A stretch of 64,000 bases of DNA from Bilabrum cf. latius (GCA_965178125.1 OZ237746.1:1-64000); one strand, 5' to 3'; numbered from the stretch's first letter, positions 5,251 through 28,404 are shown. Numbers and translations: made by a program. Notes: generated by a model not told the origin, from the letters alone.

Positions 5251-5286
5251 ATACGCCATACTTGCACTGAATGAAGTACAATGAAT

Positions 5287-7092: not shown

Positions 7093-7154
7093 TTGTCAAA
7101 AAGTGAAGATGAAAATATTTTTCCCCGACCCTGTCCCTGACTTTATAATAGATA

Positions 7155-7625: not shown

Positions 7626-7639
7626 ACCCCCCCCCCTTG

Positions 7640-7757
7640 ACCATATCGGCGCCGCGCGAGTAAAACGGAATCTGAGGTACAAATGGATCATGCTATGCCC
7701 CTGCCCCTTCCAAATGCAGTTTGAATCATCTTCATATCTGCCGTGGTTGCCGAGATC
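7640..7757. repeat. Diverged partial copy of the 155-bp satellite
   Basis: GGCGCCGCGCG...GGAATCTGAGG...TTTGAATCATCTTCATATCTGCCGTGGTTGCCGAGATC is colinear with the 155-bp unit. Confidence 0.85.
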
Positions 7758-7763
7758 TCAACT

Positions 7764-8363
7764 TGGTGGGGCTAGCAGGTTGGGTGTGCGGGCGATGGAT
7801 GAGGCTATGGTGCCTTTGGTGGGCTAGCAGGTTGGGTGTGTGGGCGGTGGATGGGACTATGGTGCCTTTGGTGGGGCTAGCAGGCTGGGTGTGTGGGCGA
7901 TGGATGAGGCCATGGTGCCTGTGCTGGGGCAAGCAGGTTGGGTGTGCGGGCGGTGGATGAGGCCACGGTGACTGTGGTGGGGGTAGCAGCTCGAGTGTGT
8001 GGGCGGTGGATGGGGCCATGGTGCCTTTGGTGGGGCTAGCAGGTTGGGTGTGTGGGCGGTGGATGGGGCCATGGTGCCTTTGGTGGGGCTAGCAGGCTGG
8101 GTGTGTGGGCGGTGGATGGGGCCATGGTGCCTTTGGTGGGGCTAGCAGGCTGGGTGTGTGGGCGGTGGATGGGGCCATGGTGCCTTTGGTGGGGCTAGCA
8201 GGCTGGGTGTGTGGGCGGTGGATGAGGCCATGGTGCCTGTGCTGGGGCAAGCAGGTTGGGTGTGCGGGCGGTGGATGAGGCCACGGTGACTGTGGTGGGG
8301 GTAGCAGCTCGAGTGTGTGGGCGGTGGATGGGGCCATGGTGCCTTTGGTGGGGCTAGCAGGTT
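7764..8363. repeat. G-rich 53-bp minisatellite, about 11 copies, with a 318-bp higher-order repeat
   Basis: GGATGGGGCCATGGTGCCTTTGGTGGGGCTAGCAGG recurs at 8008, 8061, 8114; variant CCACGGTGACTG at 7963 and 8281 (6x53 apart). Confidence 0.92.
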
Positions 8364-8570
8364 GCCGCTGCCTTAGGTTACATCATCCCATGAATGAGAT
8401 GTACTGAGTGGATGTTTGCAGCCTGCAGGTGGTGCGGTCAGGCGAGAACAAACTTGAACTGTCTATCGTTTGCAGGGGGTTCGGTGTGACGCGATTGTCA
8501 TGCCATGATCGGCTCTGTCAGTGATGAGTGTGCCGCTGGCCAGCTATCTATCGTCATGCTAGCCGTCCAT

Positions 8571-10271
8571 TCATTCGGACCCACTCCTAGAGCCCCTCCT
8601 CTTGCGGCCCCCTTTCCCGACACCCGCCACCAAGCCCTCTGACCCCCTCTCCCCCCACCGCACGCGTCCCTCCTTGTCCATGCGGTCCTGCTCCTGCTGG
8701 TACCACTGCTCCATCGCGACCGACATCTGCTCCACGCTGCTCTCGCACAAAGCCACGGGCGCAGGCAGGATGCACATGCGGCCCAGCACCTTGCCCCACC
8801 GATCCGCGTCCTGGGCCGCCCACGTCTGCTGGTGCATCACGATGAACCCGTCCTTCTGCAAGTGCCGCAGGAAGCCCGGCCTGTCCTCGCCTACGTGCAC
8901 GTGCTGGTAGATGCACAGGTCCTCGCTGGGGTCGCACCACCTGTCCTCGCCCGCCCCCGCGTCATTGGGCGCGCTCAGCTCCTGCATGCCCCCCTCTGCC
9001 GGGCTGCGCTCCCCGGTGGGGGGCGAGGGGTCCGTCCCGTCCTCCCCCAGCCCGGTGGCCTGGTACCAGGGGAAGAAGAACGCCCTGGCCTCGGGTGATA
9101 GCCCCTGCCTGAGCCTCTTGCGGTGGGCCATGGCGGTGTTCTCGAAGTCCTGCAGCGGGTTGGTGAACCGCTGCTGCAGGCCAGCCACCATGCCGGCGGA
9201 CGGGGCCCGCTCGAAGTTGTCGTGGTCGAAGCCGCTGTTGGCCTTCCGGTACGTGTGCGCGGTGTCGAAGAGGGTCTTGTTCATGACCTTGAGCATCATC
9301 ACGAACCCGCTGAGGAACCAGGGCTGGTTGTACAGCAGGAAAGTGGGGATCTTGAGCAACAGGAACCACAGCCGCTGCAGCATCGTCTCCTGCGGATAGG
9401 CCTCCACGCGATCGGCCACGGCCTTGGCCAGGGCCTGCGAGTGTGTCGCCATGATGCCCCCTCCCATGGCAGTGGGCAGCTTGTCCTGGCCTCCAGAGTA
9501 CAGACTCACGTCTACGGATGGCTGCACGCGCCACCGGCTGTACGGCCCGCCCTGCACCGTGTCCTCTACGATGAGTGCACCTGCCCTGCGGTACGGCTCG
9601 CACCAGTCCATCCCGTACCTGACGCCAAACATGTGCGTGACTACTACCATGCCCACCTCGCTGGGCTCGGGGAGTGCTGAGATGCCACCGTTGCCATCTG
9701 GGACGACTAACCGCCACGATCCAGTGCAATCAGGGTTCACATCTAGGTCCATACTTATCAGCCGGGAAGGATCATCCTTGCAAGCGTTCTACATGACAGC
9801 CAAGAACCCATTCCTGTGCATAAGCGGAGACACAAGAATCTTTTTGCCCTTGCAAGACCATTTATGCCCATCGTTTACCGGTTTCGCAGCGGTTCCTTTC
9901 TTTTTATAGTCGCCTCCTTTCATCTCCTAGCTCGACGGAGACGAGGCGCCAGCGCTTCCGGCGAGACGAGAGTTCTTGCGCGGCAGGGTCTGAGCATCAG
10001 GCTGTTCGCTAGCCTCAGCTTCGTGCAATTCAGTCACAAGCGTATAGAATAGCGACCTGCATGTGTACCCATAAACTCCATGCCGTCCATCATCGTCGAA
10101 CTTGTGCAGCAGCTGGGGCTTTCCAAATATCAGTGATTGAACAGGCGCCCAAACGGCAAGCACAAAGTGGTACCAAAAGAACCACCAAGTCACGTGCAGA
10201 TAGGCTGGCACGGCAGCATGCGGGATCCATGGAGACTTGATCGCCTGCTCCTTGGCCTTGGAATCGGCCAT
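8571..10271 (-). CDS. PLP-dependent DegT/DnrJ/EryC1/StrS-like aminotransferase-fold protein
   Basis: Motifs VTHMFG, IVEDTVQG and YSGGQDKLPTAMGGG. ORFs 9927-10436 and 8571-9752 are in one frame, joined through two TAGs. Ends TGA. Confidence 0.7.
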
Positions 10272-10461
10272 GGAATTTCCGAATTGGGGTTTTCTTGGGT
10301 AGACGGGGAGCTGTGGTCTGGAAAACCTTAATCTATACGTTACTTTATTTTCGAGGCGTCCATGAAGCGGCCAAACGAGCACATTTGAGAGCCTTTCATC
10401 GGGGCAGCATTGGATCTGGATCAAAATAACACGCAAATTATGTGAGGCAGTTGCTGCTTAG

Positions 10462-11733
10462 TTATGCCCCAGCCCCGCACCCTTCGATCCCGCACACGCC
10501 CAGCCAGGGCGGGTCGAACCACGTGTGCCGATCGTCGCCCACCCAGGCTTGGAACGGCAGCACCTTGCCTCCAGGCCCGTCTGTGAGGTGCACGGACGCA
10601 TTGAACGCGTACCCGGTGGGCTCATACCCGGGCATCTGGATCGCAGGCACGGTTGTGTTGAGGCTCCCGTCCATAACCTGAGGGGGCAGCAGCCCTGCCC
10701 GCACCAGCGTGTGGACGTCCCGGGCGTAATACCCCACGGTGGCCTGCAGCTGCTTCTGCGCGTAGTACACGGCGGCCAGTGCCTGCCTTGCCCCCCACAC
10801 GCTGTCTCCTCGCCACTGGGCCTGCGCCTCGCTAGGGGGCTTGCTCGTGAACTGCAAGAAGCCCCACCGCTCGGGGAGATGCATGTTGATGGCCCCCTGC
10901 TCGCTCCACACCCAGTTGTGCTCAGGCATGTCGGGCACCTTGGACCAGTGGCACCGGACGCCCCGATCGATCTCGACCTCCGAGTCGCCTCCAGTGGCAG
11001 GCTGGTTCGGCTCGCCGCCGCAATCGCCAGCCTTCGTGACGTTCCATTCGACTCTGGAAAAGTCAAGCCTCCACTTTTCTCCTTCTCGAGGTGGCGCAGT
11101 GGCGATGCCGCTCTAGTTTGCGACATACCTCTCGAGCGGCAGGGCCAGCTCGACTTGCCAGCCTCTAGCTGGTCCGGCCAGCGGATCATCGAAAGGCCCA
11201 TCGGCCCAAGCAGCTGAACGAACCTACGGCTCTCCTCCGATGTTAATCGGCTGCCCCCCGTCCGCGTACGGCTTCGTGAGTGTGAGCCACCAAGTTGTGT
11301 TTATGACGTTCGCTTCCAGTTCTAGATAGTGTCGGGATGAGCCTGAGGGGTCGATGAATACCTCAAAATCATTATCAAGGAATACGACATCGTCATGCTG
11401 CGTTTGGTTTGCCCAGAGTGCGTCGTCTTGCAGGTCAGCTCCAACGTAAAGCCATTTTTCGTCCCATCTCATCTTTGCCCGCGTTCGGAAGTACGGGGGC
11501 TTCACCGCATCCCCCTGGATGTCAACAAATTCGGAAGTCCAAGGAGCGGCAGCCCATGCGGGGTCATCCAGTTTGCCGTCCATGCGTGGTGGCGCTTCGC
11601 CTGGCTGAATCTTGCTGACGACGTAGTGCTAAGGAAACGGGATCAGCCCCTTTGGGTAGCTAGCATGTGCCAATGACACAAGAATGTATCCAATGCTTAG
11701 CACATGAGCAGAGTGGAGCACCCAACTTCGCAT
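10462..11733 (-). CDS. Secreted carbohydrate-binding family 9-like (DOMON-like) protein
   Basis: Signal peptide MRSWVLH...AHA; motifs DGKLDDPAW, DNDFEVFIDP, WRLDFSRVEW, NWVWSEQGAINMHLPERWG. One frame with 3 TAGs. Ends TAA. Confidence 0.82.
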
Positions 11734-11926
11734 ATTTCTGCTGGTTGTGGCCTGTCGAAATTCCGATCATACTCCGGATGCTCTCAGATGCACTGAAACG
11801 TGAACAAACAAACGACCACCCGTTGGTTGTCAACCAAGCCACCATCACGTACTGCATACTTTCATGCTAGTGTCTCACTTATGCGTGCAACTGGTTCAAA
11901 TGATGATACGAACTGGTGTGCTCCCA

Positions 11927-13972
11927 TCAGTCTGCCTTCGCGGCAGGTCTCCTGCCAATTGCTGTTAGGCCAGGTTGTGCGACGGGACTCCCCGGCCCAG
12001 CCCCACTGCCAGCAGTGCTAGTGCTAGTGGAAGTCGAACCCCCTGGTCTCCCAGCTCCTACCCCGTTCATAGACGTCTATCCTCCCCAGCTCTGTTGCCC
12101 GTTTCCATTCGATGCACCCTGCGGGTGCGTGCCTGGAGTCCCTGCGTGCTACGGTGTTGGACTGCCCGCCGCTGCGCTGCCAGTGGTACTGACACCCACC
12201 CCTGCCAGTGGTGACCCTACAGCACTGCTCTACCCCGCTCCCTGGCCCAAACCGGATCCATGCCCGAAGCTGCCAGCTGGGGGGCGCCCACCGGCCGCGG
12301 CTGCTGGCTACGATTGTCTGGGACCCGGACCGGATGGCCTGGCCTGCTGTAGCCCTGTCGAAATCTTGCCTACCATACCAGAGAGCCCCTACGCAGCAGC
12401 TGCAGCCGCTCCTAGCGCAAACGCCCCGGCCCCCTTTCCCCTGCTACCTGGTTTCAGTCGCCTCCCCGCCTGTCCGACCGCGGCCCCGAACGCACCCAGC
12501 GCCCCCGCCGCTCCGCCCTTGCCCTTGACCCAGTTGGACAGCCCGAACACCCACGAGTCCAGCAGCCTTGCAACGGTGAACACGCCGCCCGCCACCGCAC
12601 ACAGCCCCACCAGCAGCTGCGCCAGCGGCTCCCTCCGCTCCTCCCGCCGCACCATGAACGGAGAAAAGTCGTATACGAAGAACACCCCCGGCAGCACCGC
12701 CTGCCGCACACCTTGCACGACCGCAGGCCTGAACTGCGTGGCCACGGAGAACTGGTTCGACTGCAGCGGCTCTCCGCCCAGTGGCTGGTAGAGAGTGGGC
12801 ACCAGCTTGATGTAGTACTGGTACACGCCGGCGCCCTCCTCCGGCAGCTGCACCACCTCCTCAAGGGGCGCGTGCATGCCTGGCAGGTCCTGCCCGAACC
12901 TGAGGTAGTGCACCGTGTGCGACACGTTGAATTTGGGTATGTCCTGCGGGTTGAACTGGTGGATGTGCCGCGAGTCCTGCACGTGGATCTCACCCAGCGC
13001 AGCGTTCAAGTTGCCTGCCACTTTGTTCACAAGCAAGTATCCCTGCAGGTTACAGCCCTCCCCTTCCTGGCTCTGCTCGGCCGGGTCTCGGCTCGAGGGC
13101 ACGTCCTTGCACTGGCTGGCGATCTTTGACACGGCCGCGGCATTCCATCCCTTGTCTACATAGGCGGCCTTGAGCTCTTCGCATGTGTTGCAGCACTTGC
13201 GAGACGCTGATTCCGCCCCGTAGCACGACTTGCAGTCACCTTCCTTGACGACCTTGAGCTCCTCGGCCTCCAGCGCGTCCTGCACCTCCCACGGCAAAAG
13301 ATGCGGAAAAGCAGGCGCCGCAGGGTGCAACGTGTTTTTACGCAGCCGTGTCTTGGTGATAACATGCTCATGTGTCTGCTACTGGTCCCCTGACACGTCC
13401 ATGGCATCCAAGTTGATCTCTGCGGTGGGAGGGCGAGCACATGGACGGGAGCAGCAATCGCCCACTCGTTAGCAGGACTGCCGCGTGGCAGTATCGGTAG
13501 CTCACTTTTGCAATTTAAGGCGTGGAATGATACATTAAAGTCTATCTTGAGCTTCTGGCCAAACGAGGGATCTACGACCATGTGGTCGTGAATTTCTATG
13601 GTCAAGTAGCGAGCTATCTCGGATAGAGTAAGGATTGCTACGACAGCCATCGACAATAAGCTCACTGCGAAATTTGAATGCACCTGAATAGTCCGTTGCA
13701 GCACAGTGTGGTGTTGAGGAAGACGCAGTTGGTGCCACGTGCATTCGAAGGCTGCCACCGCATCCTTCAAGTAGGCCCAGTAGCCAGTATTACCGCAGCA
13801 GTGCGAACTCACTGGCAGCACCCGATCTAGTCTATGTCCTCTCTACTTTCTTCAGTTTTGGAAACATGTCAACGCCCTTGAGCTACTGCACGATAGATGC
13901 CTGCTACGTTGGCCGAAGAGTGGTGGCTCCACCTGAGCTTCCAGCCTTGCGTCGCCTCATCCCAGAGCTCAT
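11927..13972 (-). CDS. ERGIC3: ER-Golgi intermediate compartment protein 3 (Erv46-like); introns approx. 13665-13812 and 13420-13505
   Basis: LKGVDMFPK, DAMDVSGDQ*Q, CKSCYGAE, CCNTCEE, EGCNLQGYLLVNKVAGN, PGVFFVYDFSP, CAVAGGVFTV. Multiple in-frame TAGs. Ends TGA. Confidence 0.92.
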
Positions 13973-14241
13973 AACGACCAATATCTGCGAGTGAGCTGCT
14001 CAGGAGTATACGAGGTGTAGGACAAAGAGCAGCAGCACACTATAACGCGGGTCTCGGAAATAAGTCTGTTTTGACTTGAAACAGCTCCTTACATTTCGAA
14101 CCCGAGAAGCCAGCGCTGTGCGTTAGTATAAAAGGCTACATTTAGTCTATCTGCTTCGTTCACGGCTCTTTTTGCATACCACAAGGCTGAATATTAGTAA
14201 ATATACACTTTGTTAGCATCTATGCAATGATAACTGCTGAC

Positions 14242-15534
14242 ATGAGCAGAAAACTTGCAGTTGCTGCGGTGTGCATGGTAGCTTTGGTTTCAGCTGTACA
14301 GTCGCCCCAATCAAGTTATTAGACTGGAACGCTTCCAAATGGGTTAACAATGAGAGTCCCAGTTGATATTCCCGAGGAGCTTGCGAGTTTCCGAAGGGAA
14401 TAGTATCCCGGGCAGTAGCAGCAGGAGGGGATGCGGTTTGCAAGGACCTAGCATGATCAGGGCGTCAGGTTGAGTCGGCCAGAAGGTTCCTCAGGGATTC
14501 CAATCTATGGACCTACCGGATCCGGTGTGTACGGCAGTCAGGCCCTGCCTCCAGGTGTCTTGCAGCCGCTCGGGGCTGGCGGGTACGACATGCACGCATA
14601 CCCGGGGCTAGCCGGCCCAGCAGTCGGGGGTCTGGGGGGACAATATGGTGGCTTGACGGCCAGCAATACGGCTGCATGGGCCCGTGGGATGGGGGCGCAG
14701 CACGTGCTATCTTAGTTGAGCCAGCAGGACCCCGGCTTGGCGTGGGTGCAGCAGCAGCACCTGGTGCAGAAGGCCCACGTCTCGCAGGAGATCATCGCGC
14801 TGCAGAGGGAGGGCCTTCTTAGGCAGAGGGACGTGGCTGTTGCACAAGCAGCCGTGCACCAGGCCCAGCGCGTCCTGCAGCACGCCCAGGCCCTCCAGCG
14901 CGCGGTGTCAGACCGAGTGGCTGCCCTCAACAAGCAGATGACTGCCCTCGACCTGGCCCAGCGCAGGGCGGCAGACCAAGCGCAGCTGAGGGCGCTTACT
15001 GCAGCGCTGGCGGAGGCCAAGGCGGCCAATGAGGCGGTATCCGGCGCTTAGGCGGGCCACGAGGACCTGATCGCCCAGCTGGAGGCCAAAGCCAAGGAGG
15101 CCCGGGAGCGGGTGAGCAAGGCATCGGGGGACATTGGGAAGCTGCTGGGGGGCAAGGGGGACGAAGGGGGGAAGCAATATGAAGGTGGGCAGGATGCAGG
15201 GGCCGGCAGCGAAGCGGGAGGGGAGGCAGAGGGCGAGGGCGCCACGCTGCTAGCAGTGCATTCAGGTGCGGGTAGCGGGACAGTGCAGGCAGCTGCAGCT
15301 GCAGCTGCAGCGGGCCAGTCTGCGACAGACAGCGTGCAACGCGTCGACTCCGGCGAAAGGCTAGGCAGGTCCAGCGGATAGAAATCATAGGAAACACCGG
15401 TGCATGCCGGGGCGGCGCTGGATGGCCACAGGGGGCGACTTGCGAAGGGTTCAGCAGAGAACAGCTAGGTTGAGGGGGAGAGCAGGAAAGCTTCTTTGGG
15501 GCTGCGTGGATCTGGTCACGGGCACGCTTCATGA
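14242..15534 (+). CDS. Hypothetical secreted Gln/Ala-rich coiled-coil protein
   Basis: Signal-like MSRKLAVAAVCMVALVSA. Three same-frame ORF fragments joined by TAGs, including CAG TAG CAG CAG at 14413. Ends TGA. Alternative in-frame ATG at 14227. Confidence 0.72.
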
Positions 15535-15617
15535 ATGCACCATTTGACGAAGACACTGTATGACTGAATATTGACATCATCCCGATGATTCTGGCAATTA
15601 CAAGCCGCATGCACGCC

Positions 15618-15977
15618 TCAGACTCTCGCCCGCTTGCTGGGCCCGCCCGCCCCTCGGCCCCGGTGCATGGCCAGCGCCTGCCCTGCCGCGCTCTCCCCCC
15701 TGCTCTGCCATTTGCGGCCCCCCATCACGGCCGCAGACGGTAGCTCACCTCGCCCCTGCATCCCCGTTCCTGCCCCCGCCCCCGATCCCGGGAGCGGAGA
15801 CCCGCCCCCGCTCAGCCCAGGCACCCTGCTCCCGTCCCACGCCTCCCGCATGGACACTGGCACTGCCTCGTCTAGCACTGCCAGTGCCCTGCATGTGAGC
15901 CTCAAGAGTGACACATCAATGGAGTCCGGCAATCGGAGGTGCAGCCACACGCGGAAGCTGGCTGCCTCGGACTGCTA

Positions 15978-16029
<52 letters not shown>

Positions 16030-18044
16030 GCGCTGGAACTGCTCGTGGTGCTACTTCCAAGCACAGGGCCAGCACTCGTCACAGCAATCCGCTCCAACAC
16101 AGCAACGCCAATACAGGGGCGGTGCCAGGCGGGCTGGCGGGGACTCGCGGCAGCAGCCCGTGCTACTGCAGGCGCGGGCCGGCTGTATGCAAGCCCCTCC
16201 GCCGCCCCTGCCGCCGCGTGGGCCAGGTCACGCCCATCCACCGGCCCCAGGCTCTCGGTGCGGCCGAATGCACCATCCCCTGCGGCCCCTACATCTGCAT
16301 CGGGAGCGCCCAGCAGAGCCACGAACCTACCGACGCAGGCCCTCCACGGGGCCAGCACGGCAGGCCCCCAGTAGGGCTCCCTGGGGGCCAGCAGGGAGAC
16401 ACCGCTGGCCGGCACTCTCACCTCGCGGCGGCCCCTGAGCAGACCCGCTGGGCTGCACGGACCCCTCCTTGGGTGCAGCAAGGCTCCGGGAGAGTGCCGG
16501 AAGCGCTGCAGTGGGGTGCACAAAGCATCGCCCATGGCTGCGTCACCTGCTAGTCGATCCGCACGCGGCCAAACGGCATCGTCCGGTCCCATCCCCGCAT
16601 GGGGGTCCATCCAAGGGGCCCTCGCTTTCGGCATTGAGTGCAGTAACAGCTGGATCCAGCGGACACTCCTTCCCACTGCAGCAGAGGGCCGCGTGAGTCC
16701 AGTGCCCTCGGGCTCATCCGGTTTTCTCGACGCAGCGGTGGTACCGGGACTCGGGCTGCTGCCGTACGTTAGCGCTGTGGAAGAACCGTCTGTGCCTTTG
16801 CTCCCCGAGTCTTCGTTCGTCTCTAGTCGAGCCGCCATTACAGCTGCCCTTACCTTTTTTACAGCTGCCTGCGCCGTTTCGAGGTCCAGATGCTCCCATG
16901 GCCCCCCTTTGTAGACCAGCGGCCCCCTGTCCGGCACACCGGGGGGAAGCACACGGAGCGGCCGCTTTGGAGCAGAGCTGCCGGATGCGCTGGCTGATGC
17001 CCCGTGGGCCCCCAGTGTCATCACACTCGTCACACCAAGCTCGGCACAAATGGCTCTCAGGGTCATCAGACCGGCCCCCTTGACCCAACCACAGGTATTC
17101 ACGACAAGCAGAGGACGAGGGGTCGGGGCCCTACTTGCGCTGCTTCCGGCCCGACCACAGCCGGCACCCTCTCCAGCGCTGGCCCATGCCGCTGCCTCCG
17201 TTTCTAGTAGGCGCCTCATGGCGCGACCTGCTGCCGCACAGCAAGCCACAAATCCGCGGGGGTCAGCCTCTGGAGACGTGGCCCCGTAGGCGAAGCAGAC
17301 GGACCCACGCGGGCTTGTCATGGGTCGGGCCCCGTCGCAGCACGCGGGCGGCTCGAGCAGCCAGGGGAGCTGGATACCGCCTGCAAGATGGGACGATGGG
17401 ACCCCTTCAGCATCGGGTGTGCCGCTTGTCATTGGCAGCCTCGCAGTTGTGGCCTCGGACCGGGCAACTGCGCCGCACACCAGCCCGGGCCCCCCCAGCA
17501 GGGACTGACCCACGTCGCAGTCCAGGAGGGCCAATGGGCGGGCCGGGCGAGCTGCGGGGCCCGGCACTGAACTTGCAGCAGCTACTGGCTGACTGCCTGA
17601 TCCAGCCGCATTCATCAGCAGCGTTGCCAGCGTGCTCTTGCCGGAGCCCTGGGGCCCGACTACAGCGACTACATCGACATCGCGTGCCGGACTGGTCGTG
17701 GGGCTACCACCAGAGCCCCACAAAACAGTTTCTAAACCCAAGCTCCACGAGGATGGCAGGACTATCGACTGTGTGGTCGATTTCCAGGCAGACAAGGTTT
17801 TCGGGCTGTATGATGAATGCTTCGGGACAGCAAACTTCGCGAACTGCAGCACTGCACCATCGCCCCCAGCAGATAGGACTGGCTTAAGCTGCCACAGAGG
17901 AACGTCAAACGCTACAGGTGCAGCCTGGAGCAACTGGAACGCATTCACCGATGCAGATCCGTCAACCAAAGTGACAAAGCCGTGCGGCACAGGCAGTGGT
18001 ATCGTCTCATGCGGGGCAAGTGTTACAGAATTTATATATGGCAT
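15618..18044 (-). CDS. NOL9: Polynucleotide 5'-hydroxyl kinase, NOL9/Grc3 (Clp1-family P-loop)
   Basis: VVGPQGSGKST, LLDCDVGQS..GPG, LVVNTCGWVKGAG. TAG at 15975 is read through into same-frame ORF 15618-15950. Ends TGA. Confidence 0.85.
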
Positions 18045-18202
18045 TGGACTTAAGGTTTAACGGGCACCATATTCAAATTTCCCGCTATCTGTGGCCGATA
18101 AATACCAGTTGCCTTTTCGTTCTTTCACCGGAACGTTCGACGGGGTTCTCTGGCGATTTGAAAAAATCCAGGAGTTTAGAATCCAGGCTATTCATACCTC
18201 CA

Positions 18203-19581
18203 ATGGCATCTTAGAGCGCAGCATCCAGACTTGCTGGTAGATAGGATGATGATGATCTTGATTACGAGCTTGGATTAGGAACGGCTTCACAGGTATCGGT
18301 GGCCTAGGGCGATGGCACGAAACAAAGCGGGTCGAAAAGCAGCACGAGTGCATCATCGTCTGCTGCCAGATCGAACCTGGAAGATATGCTTGAGGATGAA
18401 GATTTTGGAATTAATACGGGTGGTACTGCCGGGAGGTCCACGGACCCTGCTCGCGGGCACGTTTCGAAGAGCGATGACGATGTCCTCGACGACTTGTTGC
18501 GAGCAGCCGGGCGTGATGATGCCGTGGCTAGCAGCGCGATGCGTGGCGGTACAGAATCAAGTGATGGATCTAGCCTGGGCCGACTAGGGGACGGATCTTC
18601 TGCTGCCGAAGACAGCGTATCGCTGGACGGCAGCATGAGCATGGGGTTCTCAACCGATATGGACACGTCGGGGCTGGAAGGTGACGACGACATGCTGGGG
18701 GTGTCTCCTGCCATGGCTATCTGCGAGCCTGATCCTCGCGTCGAGGTACTGGAGCGAGCCATAGAGCGCGAAAAAGTGAGCAACGGCCGGTCCGCCAGTG
18801 CGCGACGGCGCCCGAGTTTGGATGCTTTATAGCACACCCTGCCACCATTGCGTCCATTCGCTGCAACTGCATCCAATTGTCCCCCCTTTGACTTTAATAC
18901 CACCGCATTCCCACCTCCCAACCCGTACCCTTCCCCTCCCCTCCCTCCCCTCCCTCCCTGGACTTCCTGCAGTCGTGCCCCGAAGTGCTCCCCTACGAGG
19001 ACGAGCTCATCGAGTCCCTGGGGAACAAGCTGGACAGGGAGGAGGCCTTCCTCTCATCCAGCGCATCGAGACACCTGGACCCCCTGTTGAGAGAGCTCAG
19101 GGAACACGACTCGCACAGGGGCAGGTATCAGCTTGCCACATATGCCAGGGTCAGGCTGTGCAAGCTGCGTGGACAGCTCTTCTACCTGGCCTCTCACGAG
19201 GACGTGTGCGAGGCTAGACTCAGCGGGGCAGAGCACAGGTTCGTCAAGGACGCCTACCTGGCGCTGTCCAAGCATCTCCGGGGTTCAGTGCTGCAGCACC
19301 TGAGGGGCCGGCTGTCCCAGGTCAAGGACCCGCGGCTGGCCAGGGGCCCGCGGGTGGACAGGTATGTGACCGTGCGGTGCGAGGAGTCGGTGGGGCCCGT
19401 TCCGCTAGATCCCGCGGGGGGTTCTGGCCCTGGATCCGCGGAGAGTGGCATGCCCAGGGTACTGTCCTCGCAGCAGGACGAGGAGGAAAAGGACGCCTCG
19501 TTCGACGAGGGGACCGTGTACATCGTCCGGTATGACAAGGTGCGGTCATTGATCCACTCGGGCAAGTTGTAGTTGATATAA
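18203..19581 (+). CDS. GINS4: GINS complex subunit SLD5; intron 18776-18972
   Basis: EK|SCPEVLPYE, YQLATYARVRLCKL, P.VDRYVTVRC, YIVRYDKVRSLIHSGKL*LI-TAA. Acidic N-terminal extension contains 3 TAGs. Confidence 0.9.
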
Positions 19582-19911
19582 ATAGAAGCAGACTGCTATG
19601 CTCTTACAGTCAGATTCTGTGCGAACAGGGCTGTGGTGTTGCTTTTTTGCGCCAAGCTGCTGTCGGTACCTTTGTAGGGTGGGGTTGGGATCAAAACGAG
19701 CGAAATCAGATTTATCGTTCAGCGCAAGACTCACCGACCAACCGGAATCAAGCCGTCGCGATTTAGGCACTGGCTGCCACTAATCGAAGTAAAAGTAGAA
19801 TCTTGCAGAACGGGGACCTCGCATACGCCGCATTTGTCGGATTGGAAGGTCCAGCAGTACCGAATCAAAGTCCGCGCTTGGCTCTGAGAGCAACTCGGTA
19901 CCATCAAAGCA

Positions 19912-21120
19912 ATGGAGTGGGCACCTCTAGATTTCTACAGGGCTTCATCCCTAACGCATGAGACGTAGCGGGCGAAAGAGCTCTACGAGGCAGCGCTCGC
20001 GCGCCGAGACGCTGCTCAAGTTGCGGCTCTGCGCGCTTCGATGGAGCAGCGCATCGATGAGCTGCAACAGTTTTTCGTCGCTCATTCGGACGACGAGAGA
20101 GCCCTTTTGTTTGAGACTCAGCGCCTGTCGTTAAGATCGCTGCTAACAAAGTTTGCATCTGGAACAGCGGCAGCTGGTGGGAAGGGTGGAGCTGCCGCGA
20201 GAGCTGGCGAATCTGGCGTTGCGGGAGGAGTGTCCTCGGCATTGACAGCGTCTGGGGTGGGCAGGGAGGCTGCAGGCAGCAGCCACAAAGCCCGTTTGGT
20301 AACGTCCGGCGGTAAGCGCATCACTGACGATGCTCGACTGACCGTGGAGGAGGCCAAGGAGTGGTTCGATTTCGCGGGGGCGCGACACATGCCTGGCTTA
20401 CGGGCCCGCGTGTTCGAGGAGGCAGCCGAGGACCTGGCCTCGCTGCAGCATGACGAGTGCGTTAGCGTGCGACTCATGCGCCGGTGGTTCTTCGCTCACT
20501 ACCGCAAGGGCAAGTGGCGCAAGAGGGGAGATGCGGCCCGCATCGCGGTGAGGGAGGCGGCCACACCGGGCAACCTGGCAAAGGCGGACGCAGACGGACG
20601 CACCCCGGCACCCGCCCCGATTTACTCGTGGGAGATGGGGGCAGCCACCGATGAGGCCATGATGGCAGCCTCGGTGCTGCTGCAGAAAGAAGGGGGGGGA
20701 GATGAGGACGTCCCCGGGGTGGGGGCGAGGAGGTCCGACGGGGGCCGGCTGGCCGTGTCGCCCTCGCACGCGGCGGCAGCAGCCACAGCGGTGGCACAGC
20801 TGCCCCCCGTGGGCATGCCCGCGCCCCGCATCGAGTTCCAGATCCGGCTGTCTCCCAAGGAGTTCGCGGCCCTGTGCCTGCGCAGGAGGAGCGCGGCCGC
20901 CGAGTCGAGGTACAAAAAGAGGGTGGCGGCGGCGGGGGAGCAGCGGCGGCAGGAGCGGGAGGAGATCGAGGAGCAGCTGGCCAAGGATGCGATTCGCATG
21001 AGCGGGCCTTACCTGGACCCGTCCACGATGGACAAGCACATCTACAGGTCGTCCAACCGGGAGATGTGGAGGACGAGGGACGGGTTCAACGTGTCCGCGG
21101 GCAAGCGGCGCAAGGGATGA
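19912..21120 (+). CDS. Hypothetical protein
   Basis: 359-aa ORF with GC3-rich codon bias, extended upstream through one TAG to ATG 19912. Ends TGA. Confidence 0.7.
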
Positions 21121-21364
21121 GCGATTGCCTGCCAGCATGCATATCTGCTGCATAAAGCCGCGAAAGAAGAGGCTAAGGCCTGTCGCGCGCGTGTGTTGTT
21201 CAGCGCGATGGGCGTGTGCATTGGCGCTGGAGCGGCGATTGGTCGCTCTTTGCCTCTGTGATGTGGTGATGCCAACAATTTTCGATTCGTATTCGCGTCG
21301 CATGGCGCATCCACTGCAGATAAAATTTATATGGGGAACGCAGAGCGACCGGCCATTATATTTC

Positions 21365-22714
21365 TCACCCCACCTGCACGGGCCAGACCCCCCTGATGGG
21401 GAAGTCGTTGCCCTTGGTGGCGGCCATGACTAGCTTCTCGTGGGCATGCGCCACCTTGCCCTTGACCAGCCTGCAGTAGATCAGGTTGGCCAGCACGCAC
21501 TCCACCTCCCCGATGGTCAGGTCCCTTCCCGCCCACTTGAAGGCGGCCTGCACTGCCTTGAGCGGCACCAGCCTCGCCTTTGCCTTTAGCTCGCCCGCCG
21601 CATAGGCACACCTCCTCACCAGGTTGCGCTGCACCAGCAGCAGGGCCCTCTCCACCAGCAAGTAGGTACCCAGCTTGAAGTGCTCTGCCTGGGTGGCCGA
21701 CAGCTCGGCCTCGAACCGCCCCAGGTGCCCCGCCCTGAAGGCCTCCAGCAGAGGACCGTACAGCGCGTCCAGCCCGTGCTCCCGCAGGAGGGCGCCAGAG
21801 GGGAGCATGCCCAGGTGCAGTCGCACGGGCACTAGCATGGTCAGGATCTTGCGGGCGTTCCCCGGGTGCCTGCCCCTGCACGCCTCCCAGGCCCTCGTCA
21901 GCGACTGGTTCGCCTGCTTGCAGTCCTCCTCCAGGGCCAGGCAGCTGCCGCGGAAGTAGTGAAACTCCGCCACGATGCCCGGGGCGAATTCCCGCTCGAT
22001 GTCGTACGGAAAACGAGTCTTACTCTCGAGCGGATCGAGCGCGCTGCGGCACTGTTTGAGCTACGAGAGCCTAAAGTAGGTGCGCAGCATGAGCACTGCC
22101 AGGTAGAATCCGGTGCGCTTCTTGCTGCGGTCCAAGTCTGCCATGCGGTGCATGATGCACGCCATGAAGGCGCGCCGCAACAAGGGAATGGTTGTTTCAA
22201 GCATTCGCTTGGATACCATAAAATCAAGGCGACGTTCTGGAGACTCGCCTGCCCCGCTCGAAGCACCAATGGCGGCCCTCCCTCGCTTGCGCTGCCTCGG
22301 AGGGAAGCCCTGCGCGATTCGAACGCAATCACGAGCCACCCCCGCAAGCACAGGTCCAAATGAATTGTCAGGAGCAGATTCAAAGGCTCCAAGGGTGGCC
22401 TCAAGGGCTACCTGGTGCCGACCAAATGCGGCTACCGCGTTGCCATCGCTATCGTGCTTGGCGGCTTCGGCAGCCATGCGGGCAACGTTTCGCCACGGAG
22501 GCTTCAGCTTCGAGCGAATTGCAGTGGCCATGCCCCCGCCAGCCATAGATGCAAGCTCGTGCAACGGCCGGCCGGCTGTGCTCCTAGCCGGTTCGAGCTC
22601 TAGGAGGCCCCGGAGACTGTCCCCATCCTCCGCTGCGATAGCCCTCTGCAGGCCCGAGAGCCACTCTTTAACATCTTCTGGTACGTTTGCTGCCGACCCT
22701 GATCGTTTCAGCAT
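21365..22714 (-). CDS. PCID2: PCI-domain protein PCID2/CSN12/Thp1-like
   Basis: SKKRTGFYLAVLMLRTYFRLS*LKQC, FHYFRG, NARKILTMLVPVRLHLGMLP, EVECVLANLIYCRLVKGKVAH. Two ORFs joined by TAG at 22061. Confidence 0.88.
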
Positions 22715-22822
22715 GCGCACACTGTGTTCCAGTCGAGTTTTGCTCGCCTGAAATCTTATCATCACACCCGCGAGCCTCCGGTCCAAGATGCTGCAGGCAT
22801 TTCTCCAGTTCTTGAAGAGAAA

Positions 22823-23833
22823 ATGGCAGGTGCTGCCGGGCCCTCAAGTAAAGCTGCATCTGTGGCGTCGGCCCCTAAGAGTTTCGCGGCACTGCTGCCT
22901 CCAACTTGGGAGAAGGACGTGGATCGGTGGTTGGCAGATGACGTGCCTGCTTTCGACGTCGGCGGCTTTGTTGTAGGCGATGCAGTGGTGAGCGCTCGAC
23001 TATTGGGTAAATCAGAAGGGGTCATTGCTGGCGTACCGTTCGTAGATGCGGTGTTTCGCCGCCTAGGCTGCGCGGTGAAGTGGCACGCCGAAGAGGGCGA
23101 TGAAGTGCGACCGGTTCACCACGTCGCGACCGTGACTGGACCGTGCCGCAAGGTTCTCCTTGGGGAGCGTACGGCGCTTAATATCCTGGCTAGGGCGTCC
23201 GGGCTTGCCACGCGCTGCGCGAAAGCGGCGCAGCTGAAGCGGGACAGGAAGTGGGCGGGTGAGGTGGTAGGCACCCGCAAGGTCACCCCCGGGTTCAGGC
23301 TGGTGGAGAAGTACGCCCTGCTGGTGGGAGGCTGCGGGACCCACCGCATGGATCTCTCGCACATGGTGATGCTGAAAGACAACCATGTCTGGGCCACGGG
23401 CTCCATCCGGGGGGCCGTGCAGGCTGCCAGGGCGGCGTGCGGGTTTGCCTCCAAGATCGAGGTGGAGTGCAGGTCGCTGGAGGAGGCCAGGGAGGCGTGC
23501 GAGGCGGGGTGTGACGTGTGCATGCTGGACAACTTCACCCCTGCCCAGCTGGAGGAACAGGCCCCCCTGCTCAAGAAGGAGTTCCCGCATGTGGTGGTGG
23601 AGGTCAGCGGGGGGCTCACGCCGGACAACGCGGGGCCCTACATGCTGCCCTGCGTTGACGTGGTGTCGATGGGGTGCCTCACGCAGGGGTACGGCGTGGT
23701 GGATTTCTCCCTCAAGGTGGACAGGGGCAGCGGGGCGGAGGCGGTGCAAGAGGCAGCGGCGAGGGCCGCGAGGCTGGGCGTGGAGGTGACGCAGGGGCTC
23801 AAGGAGGGGGCGGGAGCCACCAAGGAGACTTAA
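22823..23833 (+). CDS. QPRT: Quinolinate phosphoribosyltransferase (nicotinate-nucleotide pyrophosphorylase)
   Basis: LLGERTALN, GTRKVTPGFRLVEKYALLVGG, HRMDLSHMVMLKDNH, KIEVEC, MLDNF, EVSGG. No internal TAG. Ends TAA. Confidence 0.96.
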   Translation: MAGAAGPSSKAASVASAPKSFAALLPPTWEKDVDRWLADDVPAFDVGGFVVGDAVVSARLLGKSEGVIAGVPFVDAVFRRLGCAVKWHAEEGDEVRPVHHVATVTGPCRKVLLGERTALNILARASGLATRCAKAAQLKRDRKWAGEVVGTRKVTPGFRLVEKYALLVGGCGTHRMDLSHMVMLKDNHVWATGSIRGAVQAARAACGFASKIEVECRSLEEAREACEAGCDVCMLDNFTPAQLEEQAPLLKKEFPHVVVEVSGGLTPDNAGPYMLPCVDVVSMGCLTQGYGVVDFSLKVDRGSGAEAVQEAAARAARLGVEVTQGLKEGAGATKET

Positions 23834-23976
23834 TTGGGGCGCCATAGACGAATAGTATCTCGATTCGCACGCAATTCGCACTATTTCCTCGGCTCGGATC
23901 CACCTTGCCGGTGTGGATCCAACACTCGTCACACATTTTCTGGAAGGACGTCCGCGCCAACGGCATTTGTGCAGCA

Positions 23977-25233
23977 ATGCGAGGGGCTGTAGTTGCCTTG
24001 GCACTTGCAGTGGCGTGCCCAGTTGTTCTAGGTGGAGGTCCGCTAGAGTTGACGGATGAAACATTCTCCTAGGTATTGGATGCGGATTCCGGAAAGCAGT
24101 ATTTTATCAAGTTTTATGCCCCGTGGTTAGTGTGTCTGAAAGGAATCGTGTCGCGCGGCAGTACCCCTTGCAACTCTATTCATATGATAAATATCATTTT
24201 TTGATTGCGCAGGTGCGGTCACTGCAAGCGCGCGGAGCCCGAGGTGGAGAAACTCGCTGACCAGCTGGAATCAGACGACGCCAGCAACGTTGTGGTGGCC
24301 AGGCTCGACGCCAGCAAGTATTCCTCGGTCGCTCGCCGGTACGGTGTGCGCGGATTTCCTACGTTCAAGTTGTTCTCCGCCGCCGACGACAAGGTGGTGG
24401 ACTACAAGGGCGGCAGGACCGCCGATGCGTTTTCTAGCTGGATCGCAAGCACGGACGCAGCTGCGGAGGGAGCGAGCATCCCGAAGGGTGACGCCCCCAG
24501 CAAGCCCAAGTCTGCTTCCAAGGGAGCGTCCGGGGGCGGATCGTCCGGCAGCCGAGACGTGGTGACGCTGACGGACAGCAACTTCGAGCACGACACCCAG
24601 GCGGCTACCGGTGCCACCACAGGCACGTGGTTCGTGGCCTTTGTGGCTCCCTGGTGCGGGCACTGCAAGAACTTGCACCCCACGTGGGACAAGCTGGCGG
24701 GCGAGGTCAAGGGGGTGGTGAACGTGGCCCGCGTGGATGCCACTGCGCAGAAGCGCACAGCCCAGCGGTTCGGGGTGCGTGCCTTCCCCACCCTCAAGCT
24801 GCTGCACAAGGGGCGCGTGCACGACTACAGCGGGGCGCGGTCTCTGGAGGCCTTGAAGGAGTTCGCGCTGGGCGGCTTCAAGGAGGCAGGCGAGGGCTCG
24901 AAGGTGCCCCCCGCGCCGGTGACCGGGGCGCCCACCGGTGCGGCGCTGGCCGAGGCCCTCGGGCTGGAGGAGCTGGTGGGGGACCTGCAGGGGATCGCGA
25001 GGAACCACCTCGGGGGGGGGATCGTGCTGGCCTCGGCGGCTTTCACGGCAGGGCTACTGGTGATGCTGGCCATTGCCATCTGCACCATCCCGGCCCCTCA
25101 GGCACAGGTCCCGGTTCCATCGCCCGCGGAGAGGCCCCCAGCCAAGCACACCTTCCGGAGGGTGCCTGACGAGCAGGAGGACGGCCCTGCTGGTGCGAGC
25201 GAGGATGCAGACGCAAGCAAGAAAGACCAGTGA
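23977..25233 (+). CDS. Protein disulfide-isomerase family: two thioredoxin domains, signal peptide, C-terminal TM; intron 24126-24212
   Basis: Two APWCGHCK active sites (the first split by a GT-AG intron), TAG at 24070 (TFS*VL), TM helix and C-terminal KKDQ ER-retrieval motif. Ends TGA. Confidence 0.92.
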
Positions 25234-25388
25234 CTCTTGAGGTGGGCCGCCGAGCGCGATAACGCTGGAGGTAGCTGGGTCGTCCCCGGTGATCCACCCA
25301 ATCGCTCCTTTTCGCACTTGCTGGATGATCCGGGTCCTTCGTGTCCGTTGAAGCATAACTTGCACAAAACAAAGCGTGCAGCGTCACA

Positions 25389-26281
25389 ATGGCATCTAGT
25401 GCGCAACATACCGTCATCATACTGGGATGCCTAACTGCCGGGAAAACGCTTCTGAGACGGCAGCTCGCACGTAAGCTGCTGGCCACGACATGCTGGTAGA
25501 GTGCAGTTGCAAGCACGTCGTGGACGAGGCACGCTGGATATTGCGCGAAACCTTGACCATCTCGCAGGTTCCATCAAATTAATTGAGGCTGGGAAGTCCC
25601 TTGCCGATTCTATCAGGCCCGCAAAAGCTGGGGGGGATGAGAGGGAGGAGCTTGCATCCCCAGAAACTCGACCGACAGTGAGGTATATTTTCCTGCCTTT
25701 CAAGTACATGAAATTACAAGCTAGTGCGAATAAAACATTTAACAACGCGTTTTTAATGCGATTGCCTGCAGACGGGGCTTGAAATCGATAAGCTGACAAC
25801 TGAAAAAGGGAGGTTTGATGCAATCACGTTAAAGGAGGTAGGCGGGGCCATGGCTCCAATTTGGCCAAAATATGTTGGGGATGCCTCGACTCTATTGTTC
25901 GTAGTAGATCTGTCGCAGCCAACACAGCTTGCAGCGGCCCAGCAAGAGCTGTACGGGCTTCTGAGGTCGGGGTTGCCGACATCATCCCGAGCCGGAGTAG
26001 TGTTTGCAAAGACGGACGCACCCGGGCGCATGGACGTGCAGGTAGCCGTGGACGGCATGCGCCTCAGGTCACTCGCGGCTGCTAGGCAAGCAGACGGGGG
26101 CGCCGAGCTCAAGGCATTCGCCTGTTCGTCGCTCTCTGGAAAGGGCCTAGCTCCCATCCTCTCGTGGCTCACCGGCACCGTCCCCGCCCCGGCCAGCGGT
26201 GACAGCGGGGCTGGGGCCGGGCTTGCCAAGACGACGCCTGCTGCTGCTGCTGCTTGTGGGGCTGGAGCCGGTGGCAGTTGA
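25389..26281 (+). CDS. ARL16: ADP-ribosylation factor-like protein 16; introns approx. 25471-25567 and 25678-25771
   Basis: IILGCLTAGKTLL, TRPT|TGLEI, LKEVGGAMAPIWPKY, LLFVVDLS, CSSLSGKGL. Ends TGA. Confidence 0.8.
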
Positions 26282-26288
26282 TATCTGG

Positions 26289-28019
26289 TCAGTGGCTTGG
26301 ACTCTTGGTCTATGCGTGGCTAGCTCCTGCCCTTGCACCTGCACCTGCTCCCGCCCTTGCCCCTGCAGCGGACTACCGTGCAGCAGCAGCAGCAGCAGCA
26401 GGCGCAGTGGCTGTGGCAGACGCCGGCGCAGATGATGACGATGACGATGACGATGACGATGAAGATGAGGCCGGTCCACCGCGGGCCATGGCCTCCTCTG
26501 CGATCTCCCCTTCCCACAACCCCGCCCCCGCCCCCGCCCCCGCCCCGTTCTGCATGGCGGGCATCGCCTCCGAGTCCATCAGGGCAGCGAGGGCGGCTCC
26601 CGGCACGGCGGGCCTCAGGTGCCTGGGTTTGCCCTGCAGCGCCCTCAGCTGCTCAACGGATAGCCCAGCATACTGGTCTCCGATAAATATGGGGGACATG
26701 ACGGCCGCGGGCACACCGGGGGCGGAAGGCGCCCCTCCTCTCGCCGAGGAAGATGACACCATCGACGATGCTCCGCCGCTCAATGCAGTGGCTGGGCGCG
26801 TGGTGGAAGCCGCCACCAATGCGGGCAGGTGCTGCCGAGAAGGTGACGGCCCAGCGGACCCGAGTCCTGGCGAGCCAAGCCCCGGTCCATGTCCATGCGA
26901 CTGCACGGCAGCTGGGCGGCTTGCAGCGGCAGGAAACGGCGGCGGCGACGAGAACTACGGCACTCCCGCAACGGGGTCCACCGGGTTGCACCCAGCCGCG
27001 GCCGCGGCTGCACCGTGCACCTGGGCCAACCCTGCAGGGCCGGAAGCTGCACCGTGCACCTGGGCCAACCCTGCAGGGCCGGAAGCTGCACCGTGCACCT
27101 GGGCCAACCCTGCAGGGCCGGAAGCTGCACCGTGCACCTGGGCCAACCTTGCAGGGCCGGAAGCTGCACCGTGCACCTGGGCCAACCCTGCAGGGCCGGA
27201 AGCTGCACCGTGCACCTGGGCCAACCCTGCAGGGCCGGAAGCTGGCCGCGGTTTGGCGGCACCCCCGTTGCTGCCTCTAGCCCCCTTTCTCACCTGGATC
27301 TCTCCGAGAGACTCTCTGCTGATGGCCATGGAGATGGCCGCCTAGAGGGCCTGGGGCATCAGCTGGCTCCCGTGCTTGGTCTGGATGTGGTGCACCAAGG
27401 AGTGCTGCCTGATGTAAATCTTGTCGCACACTGGGCATTTCCCACCGTCTCCCTTGCCGTGCGTCACGAGCAGGTGCCTTTCCAGAAGCTCCTTGCGAGC
27501 GAAGTGCTTCACACACCCAGGCTCAGTGCAGTGCTGCCTGGTGCCCATACCGTGTTTGGAGTTGATGTGTCGCCGGTAGTGCTCCTTTCGTTTGAACTCA
27601 CGCGGAGGCTAGCAAAGCGTGCAAGTACGATCCTCGGCGTCACCATCTAGTCTAGGCTTCTTGTTGCTGCGAGAAGAGGCTTCCTGCTCGTCGCCTGCAG
27701 GATCCCTCTTTCGTTTCGGCTTGCTCTGTTGCGGTCCCCACGAATCTCCTGGTTGCGCATGCACGCCAGGCGTAGCGGTTGCACTAGCGTACAAAGTATC
27801 ACCAGCTGTACTTCGGTCCGACTTCTTTGCATTTACCGCAGCTGCAGCAGCCGCAGCTGCCGCAGCCGCGGCTGCGCTTCCGTCTGCAGCAGCCCGAGGT
27901 GTAGGATCCCGGGCGGCTTGCCGAGAAGCACCTCTCGCGCCACTCCCAACACTCGCACCTTGCAATCCCACTAGGTGCGCATTGTGTTCATCGTTCAGAT
28001 ATGTGCCAATGGAGTTCAT
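26289..28019 (-). CDS. C2H2 zinc-finger protein (3 fingers) with low-complexity tail
   Basis: CTLC*PPREFKRKEHYRRHINSKH, CTEPGC..FARKELLERHLLVTH, CPVCDKIYIRQHSLVHHIQTKH. Four same-frame ORFs joined by TAGs. Ends TGA. Start uncertain. Confidence 0.82.
27007..27244. repeat. Coding 39-bp tandem repeat x6 (13-aa unit AQVHGAASGPAGL)
   Basis: GCTGCACCGTGCACCTGGGCCAACCCTGCAGGGCCGGAA at 27007, 27046 and onward. Confidence 0.95.
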
Positions 28020-28303
28020 GAGCAGTCGTGTAGCTAGCACCAAATCTGGATAATGCTGCTGAGCAGCTCGGTATGAGGCGATGAACGCAATAGAAACTCG
28101 AGCAAAATCGGGGACAGTATGAAAGTGTAGCTGTTGCCTGTGCCAATCGTAAATCCGTTTGGAAGGCAAAGATAAACAAGTGCAAGTGCAACTTGAATGA
28201 AGTGGTTGGCCCCACGGTGGGGACCCGAGTCAAACGAGCAAACACAATTGCGAAATCAATCCTGTAATGTATTTGTATACACAAGTTTTTCCTCGTTAGT
28301 ATC

Positions 28304-28376
28304 GGGCGTATAGCTCAGTTGGTAGAGTGTCTGCTTAGCATGCAGATAGTCCTGGGTTCAATTCCCAGTGTGTCCA
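28304..28376 (+). tRNA. tRNA-Ala(AGC)
   Basis: 73-nt cloverleaf; anticodon arm TCTGC-TTAGCAT-GCAGA; G3:U70 Ala identity pair; GGTTCAATTCC T-loop; T-run Pol III terminator downstream. Confidence 0.95.
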
Positions 28377-28404
28377 TTCTTTTTTCCCTCCGTTGCTCTT
28401 TATG

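Follow-up and report, generated by a model that had tools for sequence, protein, structure and literature searches.

Variant nuclear codes have nearly always reassigned UAA and UAG jointly, and the sections on stop codon reassignment in two papers name few cases in which UAG alone changed its meaning (PMC5304391, PMC11687900). Joint reassignment to Gln (UAR = Gln, NCBI table 6) is reported in these sections for many ciliates, for Dasycladales, Cladophorales and Trentepohliales, and for Hexamita, Streblomastix and Amoeboaphelidium, aphelids being cited under the same code. The UAG-only cases enumerated in the corresponding part of PMC11687900 are the rhizarian exLh (Leu), Iotanema spirale (Gln) and Scotinosphaera (Ser), together with the phyllopharyngean ciliates (Leu or Gln) and the ciliate Protocruzia tuzeti (Gln). 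This enumeration agrees with the precedents given in a preliminary description of the DNA studied here, to which it adds Protocruzia tuzeti and Scotinosphaera. According to the portions of the original accounts that deal with codon meaning, I. spirale reads UAG as Gln and stops at UAA and UGA (Panek et al. 2017, PMC5304391), Scotinosphaera sp. reads UAG as Ser and likewise stops at UAA and UGA (Li et al. 2021, PMC8271138), and exLh reads UAG as Leu (PMC5304391). The same portion of PMC5304391 reports a T32G change in the eRF1 of I. spirale.

In this work, we analyzed a window of 64 kb, that is, the whole stretch of DNA available to us, and found that it very probably follows a nuclear variant code in which UAG encodes Gln and in which UAA and UGA are the only terminators seen among 26 genes, with a decoding step that we infer. 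The code is of the UAG-only type and formally resembles NCBI table 15 (TAG = Q, TAA and TGA stops), which fits every frame that we traced; the likeness is to a table and not to a lineage, and the attribution of this table to Blepharisma is described as a mistake in the discussion of codes in PMC5304391. Judging from what that paper says on codon use, the window shares with I. spirale all three assignments, the presence of UAG at Gln positions and the use of UAA as a terminator with no in-frame occurrence. On the other hand, I. spirale is an anaerobic fornicate represented by a transcriptome only, in which UAA is the main stop, whereas the window has TGA at 22 of 26 gene ends, a GC content of 62% and a TTAGGG-type telomere. 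In phyllopharyngean ciliates and P. tuzeti, as summarized by McGowan et al. 2024 (PMC11687900), UAG alone is likewise read as Gln and UAA is a stop. The window differs from these ciliates by its (CCCTAA)n telomere, its long gene-dense arm, its GT..AG introns of 86-148 nt and, for one protein, a closest named homologue in Cafeteria; such non-ciliate features suggest that its origin is probably independent of the UAG = Gln code of ciliates. With Scotinosphaera and exLh, as far as the cited summaries describe them, it shares a nuclear code outside the ciliates in which UAG and UAA have become uncoupled, although the residue differs (Ser and Leu against Gln). Organisms using table 6 also read UAG as Gln, but there UAA is Gln as well and TGA is the sole stop, while in the window TAA terminates four of the 26 genes and does not occur in frame.

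The window starts at a chromosome end formed by 125 copies of CCCTAA. The telomere is followed by arrays of 22-bp, 155-bp, (ACCCTA)n and 53-bp repeats up to about 8.4 kb, and the sequence beyond is gene-dense. Pfam domains identified in the window include CBM9, ERV/ERGIC3, CLP1_P, SLD5_C, PCI/PSMD3-like, QPRT and thioredoxin, as well as C2H2 zinc finger, Glyco_hydro_cc, DnaJ, CID, SDA1 and RsmB-F, and a tRNA-Ala(AGC) is the sole RNA gene within it. For the gene at 55900-59040 and for the shorter proteins, the homologue search returned no homologues. The genes most relevant to the reading of the three stop codons are listed in Table 1.

Table 1. Coordinates of genes and codons bearing on the meaning of TAG, TAA and TGA in the window
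Feature	Position	Strand	Stop codon, in-frame TAGs and remarks
Gene without Pfam family ("8571 gene")	8571-10271	-	TGA stop 8571-8573; in-frame TAGs 9927-9929, 9789-9791
CBM9-like gene	10462-11739	-	TAA stop 10462-10464; in-frame TAGs 11629-11631, 11224-11226, 11113-11115
ERV/ERGIC3, last exon	11927-13419	-	TGA stop 11927-11929; six in-frame TAGs (first + strand base 13379, 12389, 12308, 12230, 12149, 12077)
Secreted coiled-coil-like gene	14227-15534	+	TGA stop; nine in-frame TAGs
SLD5 intron, inferred	18776-18972	+	GTGAGC...CAG; from frame and splice motifs, not from an RNA contig
SLD5 exon 2	18973-19581 including stop (coding to 19578)	+	Exon 1 ends at 18775
SLD5 in-frame TAG, sense (probably Gln)	19570-19572	+	2 codons before the end of SLD5; SLD5_C and the solved chain extend past it to the final LI
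SLD5 TAA stop	19579-19581	+	Immediately past profile position 56 of 56 in SLD5_C and residue 221 of the solved chain
PCID2-like PCI gene	21365-22777	-	TGA stop; in-frame TAG 22061-22063
QPRT gene	22823-23833	+	No TAG; TAA stop 23831-23833, 37 codons past the conserved DFSLK core
Thioredoxin/PDI gene, TAG of exon 1	24070-24072	+	...LELTDETFSxVLD..., upstream of FYAPWCGHCK
DnaJ-domain gene	36667-37371	+	TGA stop; TAGs 36721-36723 (in J domain), 37003-37005
CID-domain gene	37501-39537	-	TGA stop; five in-frame TAGs, 39373-39375 and 39334-39336 within CID
SDA1 gene	39956-42850	+	TGA at family C-terminus; TAGs 40058-40060 (in SDA1_HEAT), 41963-41965
NSUN/RsmB-F methyltransferase gene	61234-63498	-	TAA stop 61234-61236; four in-frame TAGs, 61456-61458 within domain

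UAG is a sense codon in conserved as well as low-complexity parts of many expressed genes of this chromosome arm. At least 13 supported genes carry it in frame, and their frames run on through the TAGs to complete domain matches. Within the Pfam-matched stretches (2,035 codons) we counted seven TAG, no TAA and no TGA. A larger set of 27 putatively coding segments, with 12,853 codons in total, contained 59 TAG, 456 CAG and 59 CAA, TAG thus amounting to about 10% of all Gln-type codons. When only the 16 segments backed by Pfam, a homologue or RNA were considered (7,590 codons), the count was 41 TAG. In the coding segments, TAG was found 59 times in frame versus 73 and 71 times in the other two frames; the corresponding figures were 0 versus 26 and 41 for TAA and 0 versus 219 and 199 for TGA, these two in-frame zeros being partly circular because the open reading frames were cut at TAA and TGA.

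Four sequencing runs were compared over positions 8500-28400, namely X1-X3, which come from two studies, and the DNA run X6. Contigs of X1-X3 skip the intervals 13420-13505, 13665-13812, 24125-24211, 25471-25567 and 25678-25771, all of which are bridged by X6. Since the skipped intervals are of the GT..AG type and are kept in X6, we took X1-X3 as spliced RNA, a status that derives from these joints and not from the run records. One of the removed intervals, 24125-24211, is an intron of the thioredoxin/PDI gene. Nineteen in-frame TAG sites, distributed over six genes, lie under contigs of X1-X3; no other letter is listed for these runs, and X6 agrees with the window at the same sites. In particular, no other letters were present in the RNA contigs over the CBM9-like gene (10396-11739) and the PCID2-like gene (21296-22719), nor in the two that span six TAGs of the secreted coiled-coil-like gene (14140-15120 and 14166-15053). 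The TAGs might in principle not be translated as such, being edited to CAG in the RNA, lying in pseudogenes or resulting from assembly error. We found no point in support of this explanation, which we regard as hardly credible: the TAGs stand unaltered in spliced contigs of two studies and in DNA, which excludes RNA editing and assembly error at the covered sites, the encoded domains are intact, and two database proteins of relatives (P0122 and P0255) end precisely where the window has a TAG.

The SLD5 gene brings TAG and TAA within three codons of each other. Positions 19561-19581 of the + strand read GGC AAG TTG TAG TTG ATA TAA in the SLD5 frame, and the translation of exon 2 runs from 18973 as SCPEVLPYEDELIESL...YIVRYDKVRSLIHSGKLxLI (x standing for TAG) up to the TAA. 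Residues 174-206 of the translated stretch match profile positions 24-56 of the 56 positions of Pfam SLD5_C. Additionally, six solved SLD5 sequences were matched, and one of them, chain 8q6o_Q (221 aa), can be aligned as ...HLIRYRTIAPLVASGAVKLI through its final residue, 221. Because both the profile and the solved chain end right before the TAA, the TAG is here a sense codon and the TAA a stop, as had been proposed from the first reading of this sequence. Past the TAA, the next in-frame TGA lies 102 codons downstream and GC falls from 0.66 to 0.51.

Which residue UAG specifies was approached through relatives, distant homologues and profile scores. The protein P0002, which is 96% identical to the CBM9-like protein, has Q at both of the TAG sites that it covers (GGEPQVRAAAW and YVANQSGI); its start is the Met that comes next downstream of the first TAG of the gene, and it has the same C-terminus. 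In a less similar protein, P0254 (66% identical), the second TAG of the 8571 gene is matched by Q with the flanking residues unchanged (LVSPLMHRNGFLAVMQNACKDDPSRL), and the first one, which lies in a variable stretch, by E. Taken together, these two close relatives have Q at three of four covered sites. At the first ERV TAG (DAMDVSGDQxQ), 15 of 17 homologues have Q and the other two H, and the second CID TAG aligns with the Q of RPRD1A/B in LANDVIQ. At the other sites, distant homologues carry K, R, E, H, D, S or Y, polar residues that would fit Gln without singling it out.

We also applied a test similar to that of Codetta, in which six domain stretches with seven TAG sites were translated with TAG as each of seven of the 20 residues and the Pfam bit scores were summed. 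Gln reached the highest sum (539.2), followed by K (534.0), E (531.3), R (531.0), S (527.5), Y (523.9) and L (519.6), which gives Gln a margin of 5.2 bits over K, 7.9 over E, 11.7 over S and 19.6 over L. Single families deviated slightly: for SLD5_C, E was 0.4 bit ahead of Q, and for DnaJ, K was ahead by 0.5 bit. These two preferences, the E found at one site of P0254 and the fact that K, R, E, H, D or S are aligned at the distant-homologue sites more often than Q speak for TAG as a sense codon for another residue, such as Glu or Lys, the Ser of Scotinosphaera or the Leu of the rhizarian exLh. We consider this very unlikely in view of the Q at three of four close-relative sites, the Q column of 15 in 17 and the best summed score among the seven residues tried. 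Ser, which a green algal origin would have suggested by analogy with Scotinosphaera, was rejected together with that origin on the Q evidence, with a score about 12 bits lower and with Cafeteria as the best match, and Leu because it scores about 20 bits below Q and relatives carry Q. The assignment of TAG to Gln, already put forward in the preliminary description, is therefore supported by near-identical relatives, a conserved column and the best profile scores, and as a sequence-based call it relies chiefly on five sites and on the 5-bit Pfam margin over K.

A TAG read as Gln inside genes may still act as a stop in some of them, depending on context, as happens in Condylostoma, karyorelicts and Blastocrithidia. 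Open reading frames cut at TAA and TGA could never reveal such stops, and the coding score falls past the TAGs at 26373-26375 and 58003-58005. Moreover, a TAG occurs 9-29 codons before the TGA in the zinc finger gene (26373-26375), in the gene ending at 28405 and in the CID gene (37591-37593), and it is possible that these TAGs are the true ends of the three genes. Nevertheless, none of the seven homology-anchored C-termini ends at TAG, and in SLD5 a TAG only 2 codons before the stop is needed as sense, which argues against a stop rule that depends on position. The ERV tail beyond the first of its five final TAGs also ends in the K-x-A/D motif of the family and has a GC content of 66%. On balance, for the 26 genes delimited here, an ambiguous TAG seems improbable.

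The ERV gene deserves attention in this regard, as five TAGs fall within its last 155 codons and its tail ends in KAD at the TGA. In eight homologues (P0127-P0130, P0132, P0134, P0135 and P0137) the second membrane helix is likewise followed by a tail, mostly long and of low complexity, that ends in KNA, HRD, KQA, RAE, KDA or KKD. The GC content of the ERV tail (66%) contrasts with the 45-58% of four to five 3'UTRs that could be delimited by the ends of contigs. If the gene stopped at TAG, its 3'UTR would measure 588 nt versus 66-175 nt for genes with TAA or TGA stops, a weak hint taken from contig ends. The TAG at 12389-12391, after which the coding score drops, was taken into account as a real stop and rejected, as the homologue tails are equally long and have the same end motif. 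Judged by homology, SLD5 and ERV show that TAG is apparently read through even near gene ends.

As for the remaining two stop codons, TAA ends four of the 26 delimited genes (SLD5, QPRT, CBM9-like and NSUN) and TGA the other 22. The C-termini of seven genes could be anchored by homology, with TAA in SLD5 and the CBM9-like gene and TGA in SDA1, the PCID2-like gene, Glyco_hydro_cc, ERV and the 8571 gene. The end of the CBM9-like protein at its TAA is common to P0002, and its final ...GC is as in P0007 and P0008. In Glyco_hydro_cc the TGA follows profile position 237 of 237, and the C-terminal GGRKRRGSRSG of the 8571 gene is kept in P0257 and P0286 up to the TGA. An earlier or spliced end of the 8571 gene, which X1-X3 leave without cover at 8500-8657, was considered and dropped because relatives keep this peptide up to the TGA, the gap in cover being no evidence in itself.

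Were the four TAAs read as sense, the frames would extend by 102, 73, 22 and 129 codons up to the next TGA, all with non-coding scores; in three of these genes GC drops from 0.66-0.69 to 0.46-0.56, and in QPRT the coding score changes from +18.7 to -20.2 across the TAA. For a test independent of the cutting of open reading frames, we used a 3-periodic Markov coding score, trained on the Pfam-supported genes and computed in the same frame for the 150 nt before and the 150 nt after every stop triplet, which took the place of a poorly discriminating codon-usage score. Outside repeats, none of 448 TAA and none of 1,356 TGA were called internal (6 and 11, respectively, were called terminal), and among 863 TAG there were 6 internal, 8 terminal and 77 ambiguous calls. 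The coding score exceeded 0 on both sides of no TAA, 26 TAG and 4 TGA, the latter marginal, and it exceeded 2 on both sides of 15 TAG and of no TAA or TGA. The contrast between no TAA and 26 TAG flanked by coding signal is more than chance.

The absence of TAA from genes could also reflect a coupled code, with UAA and UAG both read as Gln and TGA as the sole stop, in which high GC alone keeps TAA out of coding sequences. CAA is only 0.129 as frequent as CAG, so that few in-frame TAA are to be expected under such a code: 0.7 in the Pfam-domain set, where a zero says little, and 7.6 in the set of open reading frames, where none has a probability of about 5e-4 that is partly circular. In the Markov set, which is free of this circularity, about 3.4 are predicted and the probability of none is about 0.03. 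Against the coupled code also stand the four genes that end at TAA, two of them (SLD5 and CBM9) exactly at the C-termini of the family or of relatives, the non-coding extensions past all four TAAs with lower GC in three, the lack of any TAA with two-sided coding signal where 3.4-7.6 were expected, and the entry of the SLD5 extension into the RNA contig of the next gene. We regard the coupled code as highly improbable, and the missing in-frame TAA together with the anchored TAA ends rule it out for practical purposes.

A terminating UAA had been the central proposal of the preliminary description. The family-normal C-termini of SLD5 and CBM9 and the absence of TAA flanked by coding signal bear it out for the window. 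The same is true of its observations that QPRT, the CBM9-like gene and NSUN end at TAA, read again here in the sequence, that the remaining genes end at TGA (22 of 26 delimited) and that no TAA lies inside the traced frames.

With UAG read as Gln and UAA retained as a stop, a dedicated tRNA-Gln with anticodon CUA would decode UAG, the CUA anticodon being unable to pair with UAA. Such a tRNA would most simply have arisen from a mutated copy of tRNA-Gln(CUG). The release factor eRF1, in turn, would have lost recognition of UAG and kept that of UAA and UGA. The window itself contains neither of the two genes. It seems reasonable to predict this combination of an eRF1 blind to UAG and a tRNA-Gln(CUA), which matches the argument made for I. 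spirale in the relevant part of PMC5304391, namely that reading UAG but not UAA leaves only the anticodon CUA and that tRNA-Gln(CUA) is one mutation away from tRNA-Gln(CUG). The same part of that paper mentions tRNA-Gln(CUA) as known from organisms with UAR = Gln. UAG-only codes are natural experiments on how eRF1 tells UAG from UAA and on whether a tRNA(CUA) is the first step. An additional lineage would serve as an independent replicate, in this case one with high GC, TGA as the main stop and about 10% of Gln codons as UAG.

Based on the TTAGGG-type telomere, the 62% GC and the short GT..AG introns, the organism looks different from ciliates and is not obviously a metamonad either. The closest named homologue of the ERV protein is that of the stramenopile Cafeteria roenbergensis (54% identity), followed by Nannochloropsis (40%), animals and a plant (36-41%) and Chloropicon (34%); the placement near Cafeteria rests on the named match of this one protein. 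In the literature consulted, supplements aside, we found no nuclear UAG reassignment for stramenopiles, bicosoecids or labyrinthulomycetes. The type of code has already been published, in Iotanema and some ciliates, and its kind is therefore not new. We tentatively raise the possibility, somewhat short of an even chance, that the window represents an independent and unreported origin of a UAG = Gln-only code in a GC-rich lineage that is neither ciliate nor metamonad, possibly a heterotrophic stramenopile near bicosoecids, and that this code is shared by a small clade. If so, the existing telomere-to-gene assemblies and RNA data would make it possible, for the first time in such a lineage, to read the tRNA(CUA), the change in eRF1 and the succession of events directly from the genomes of close relatives that have or lack TAG at given sites. 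Differences between TAG and CAG at the same sites in close relatives would allow the steps to be ordered.

That the code is common to a clade is suggested by the database proteins of relatives at 61-98% identity, which stop at the TAG sites of the window or are split into fragments. Public protein sets of the organism and its relatives, called by the standard code, hold truncated fragments, including the pair P0254/P0253, and need re-annotation with TAG = Q. Also truncated are P0122 (98% identical), which breaks off exactly in front of an ERV TAG, and P0255 (100% identical), which does so in front of a TAG in the 8571 gene.

Standard stops were used in calling the public proteins of Bilabrum cf. 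latius and its relatives, and among the homologs of the window genes, in which TAG is read as sense, P0122 (ERV/ERGIC3) and P0255 and P0254/P0253 (both homologous to the 8571 gene, which has no Pfam family) either end exactly at TAG sites or are broken into fragments. Judging from these sequences, truncation looks systematic in the protein sets of the clade.

The 8571 gene (8571..10271, minus strand) is also incompletely covered at its 3' end by the contigs of X1, X2 and X3, runs from two studies taken as spliced RNA. In the region 8500-8672, their 3' limits lie at 8658, 8672 and 8664, respectively, that is, 85-100 nt short of the TGA stop and at a G-rich stretch. This is probably an assembly break, since the C-terminal peptide encoded there is kept in relatives. 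Within the gene, at 8933-9192, a single contig from DNA run X6 (8893-9253) carries 13 differences from the window and may represent an allele or a repeat copy; the RNA contigs over the same interval, unlike that of X6, agree with the window.

The window starts at a telomere, which together with subtelomeric arrays spans 1-8361, and 8571 is the end of the first gene inward of these arrays.

Coordinates of the features of the window
Feature	Positions	Strand	Remark
Telomere repeat, (CCCTAA)x125	1-753		
Subtelomeric array, 22-bp unit x204	761-5248		
Subtelomeric array, 155-bp unit x11.7	5283-7093		
Interstitial (ACCCTA)x76	7154-7608		within subtelomeric arrays
Subtelomeric array, 53-bp unit x11	7763-8361		
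CBM9-like gene double stop	10438-10464		TAA, then TAA eight codons further
PCI gene double stop	21356-21367		TGA, then TAA three codons further
Coding tandem repeat, 13-residue unit ASGPAGLAQVHGA, ~6 copies	26292-28229	-	in C2H2 zinc-finger protein
tRNA-Ala(AGC)	28304-28376		
Coding tandem repeat, 16-residue unit VTSSAGGHAISHGVQD, ~6 copies	61237-63516	-	within NSUN methyltransferase

Convergent genes are very tightly packed at two sites, 21295/21296 and 61156-61236. The first is the junction where RNA contigs of the 19888 gene (plus strand) and the PCID2-like PCI gene (minus strand) abut. At the second, only 75 nt separate the TGA of gene 59650-61158 (plus strand) from the TAA of NSUN (minus strand), and overlap of both 3'UTRs is therefore obligatory.

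A search of the 64 kb for tRNAs and Rfam families gave no match besides the tRNA-Ala(AGC). Tandem repeats are also present within two of the encoded proteins, and in the PCI and CBM9-like genes a second in-frame stop follows shortly past the first.
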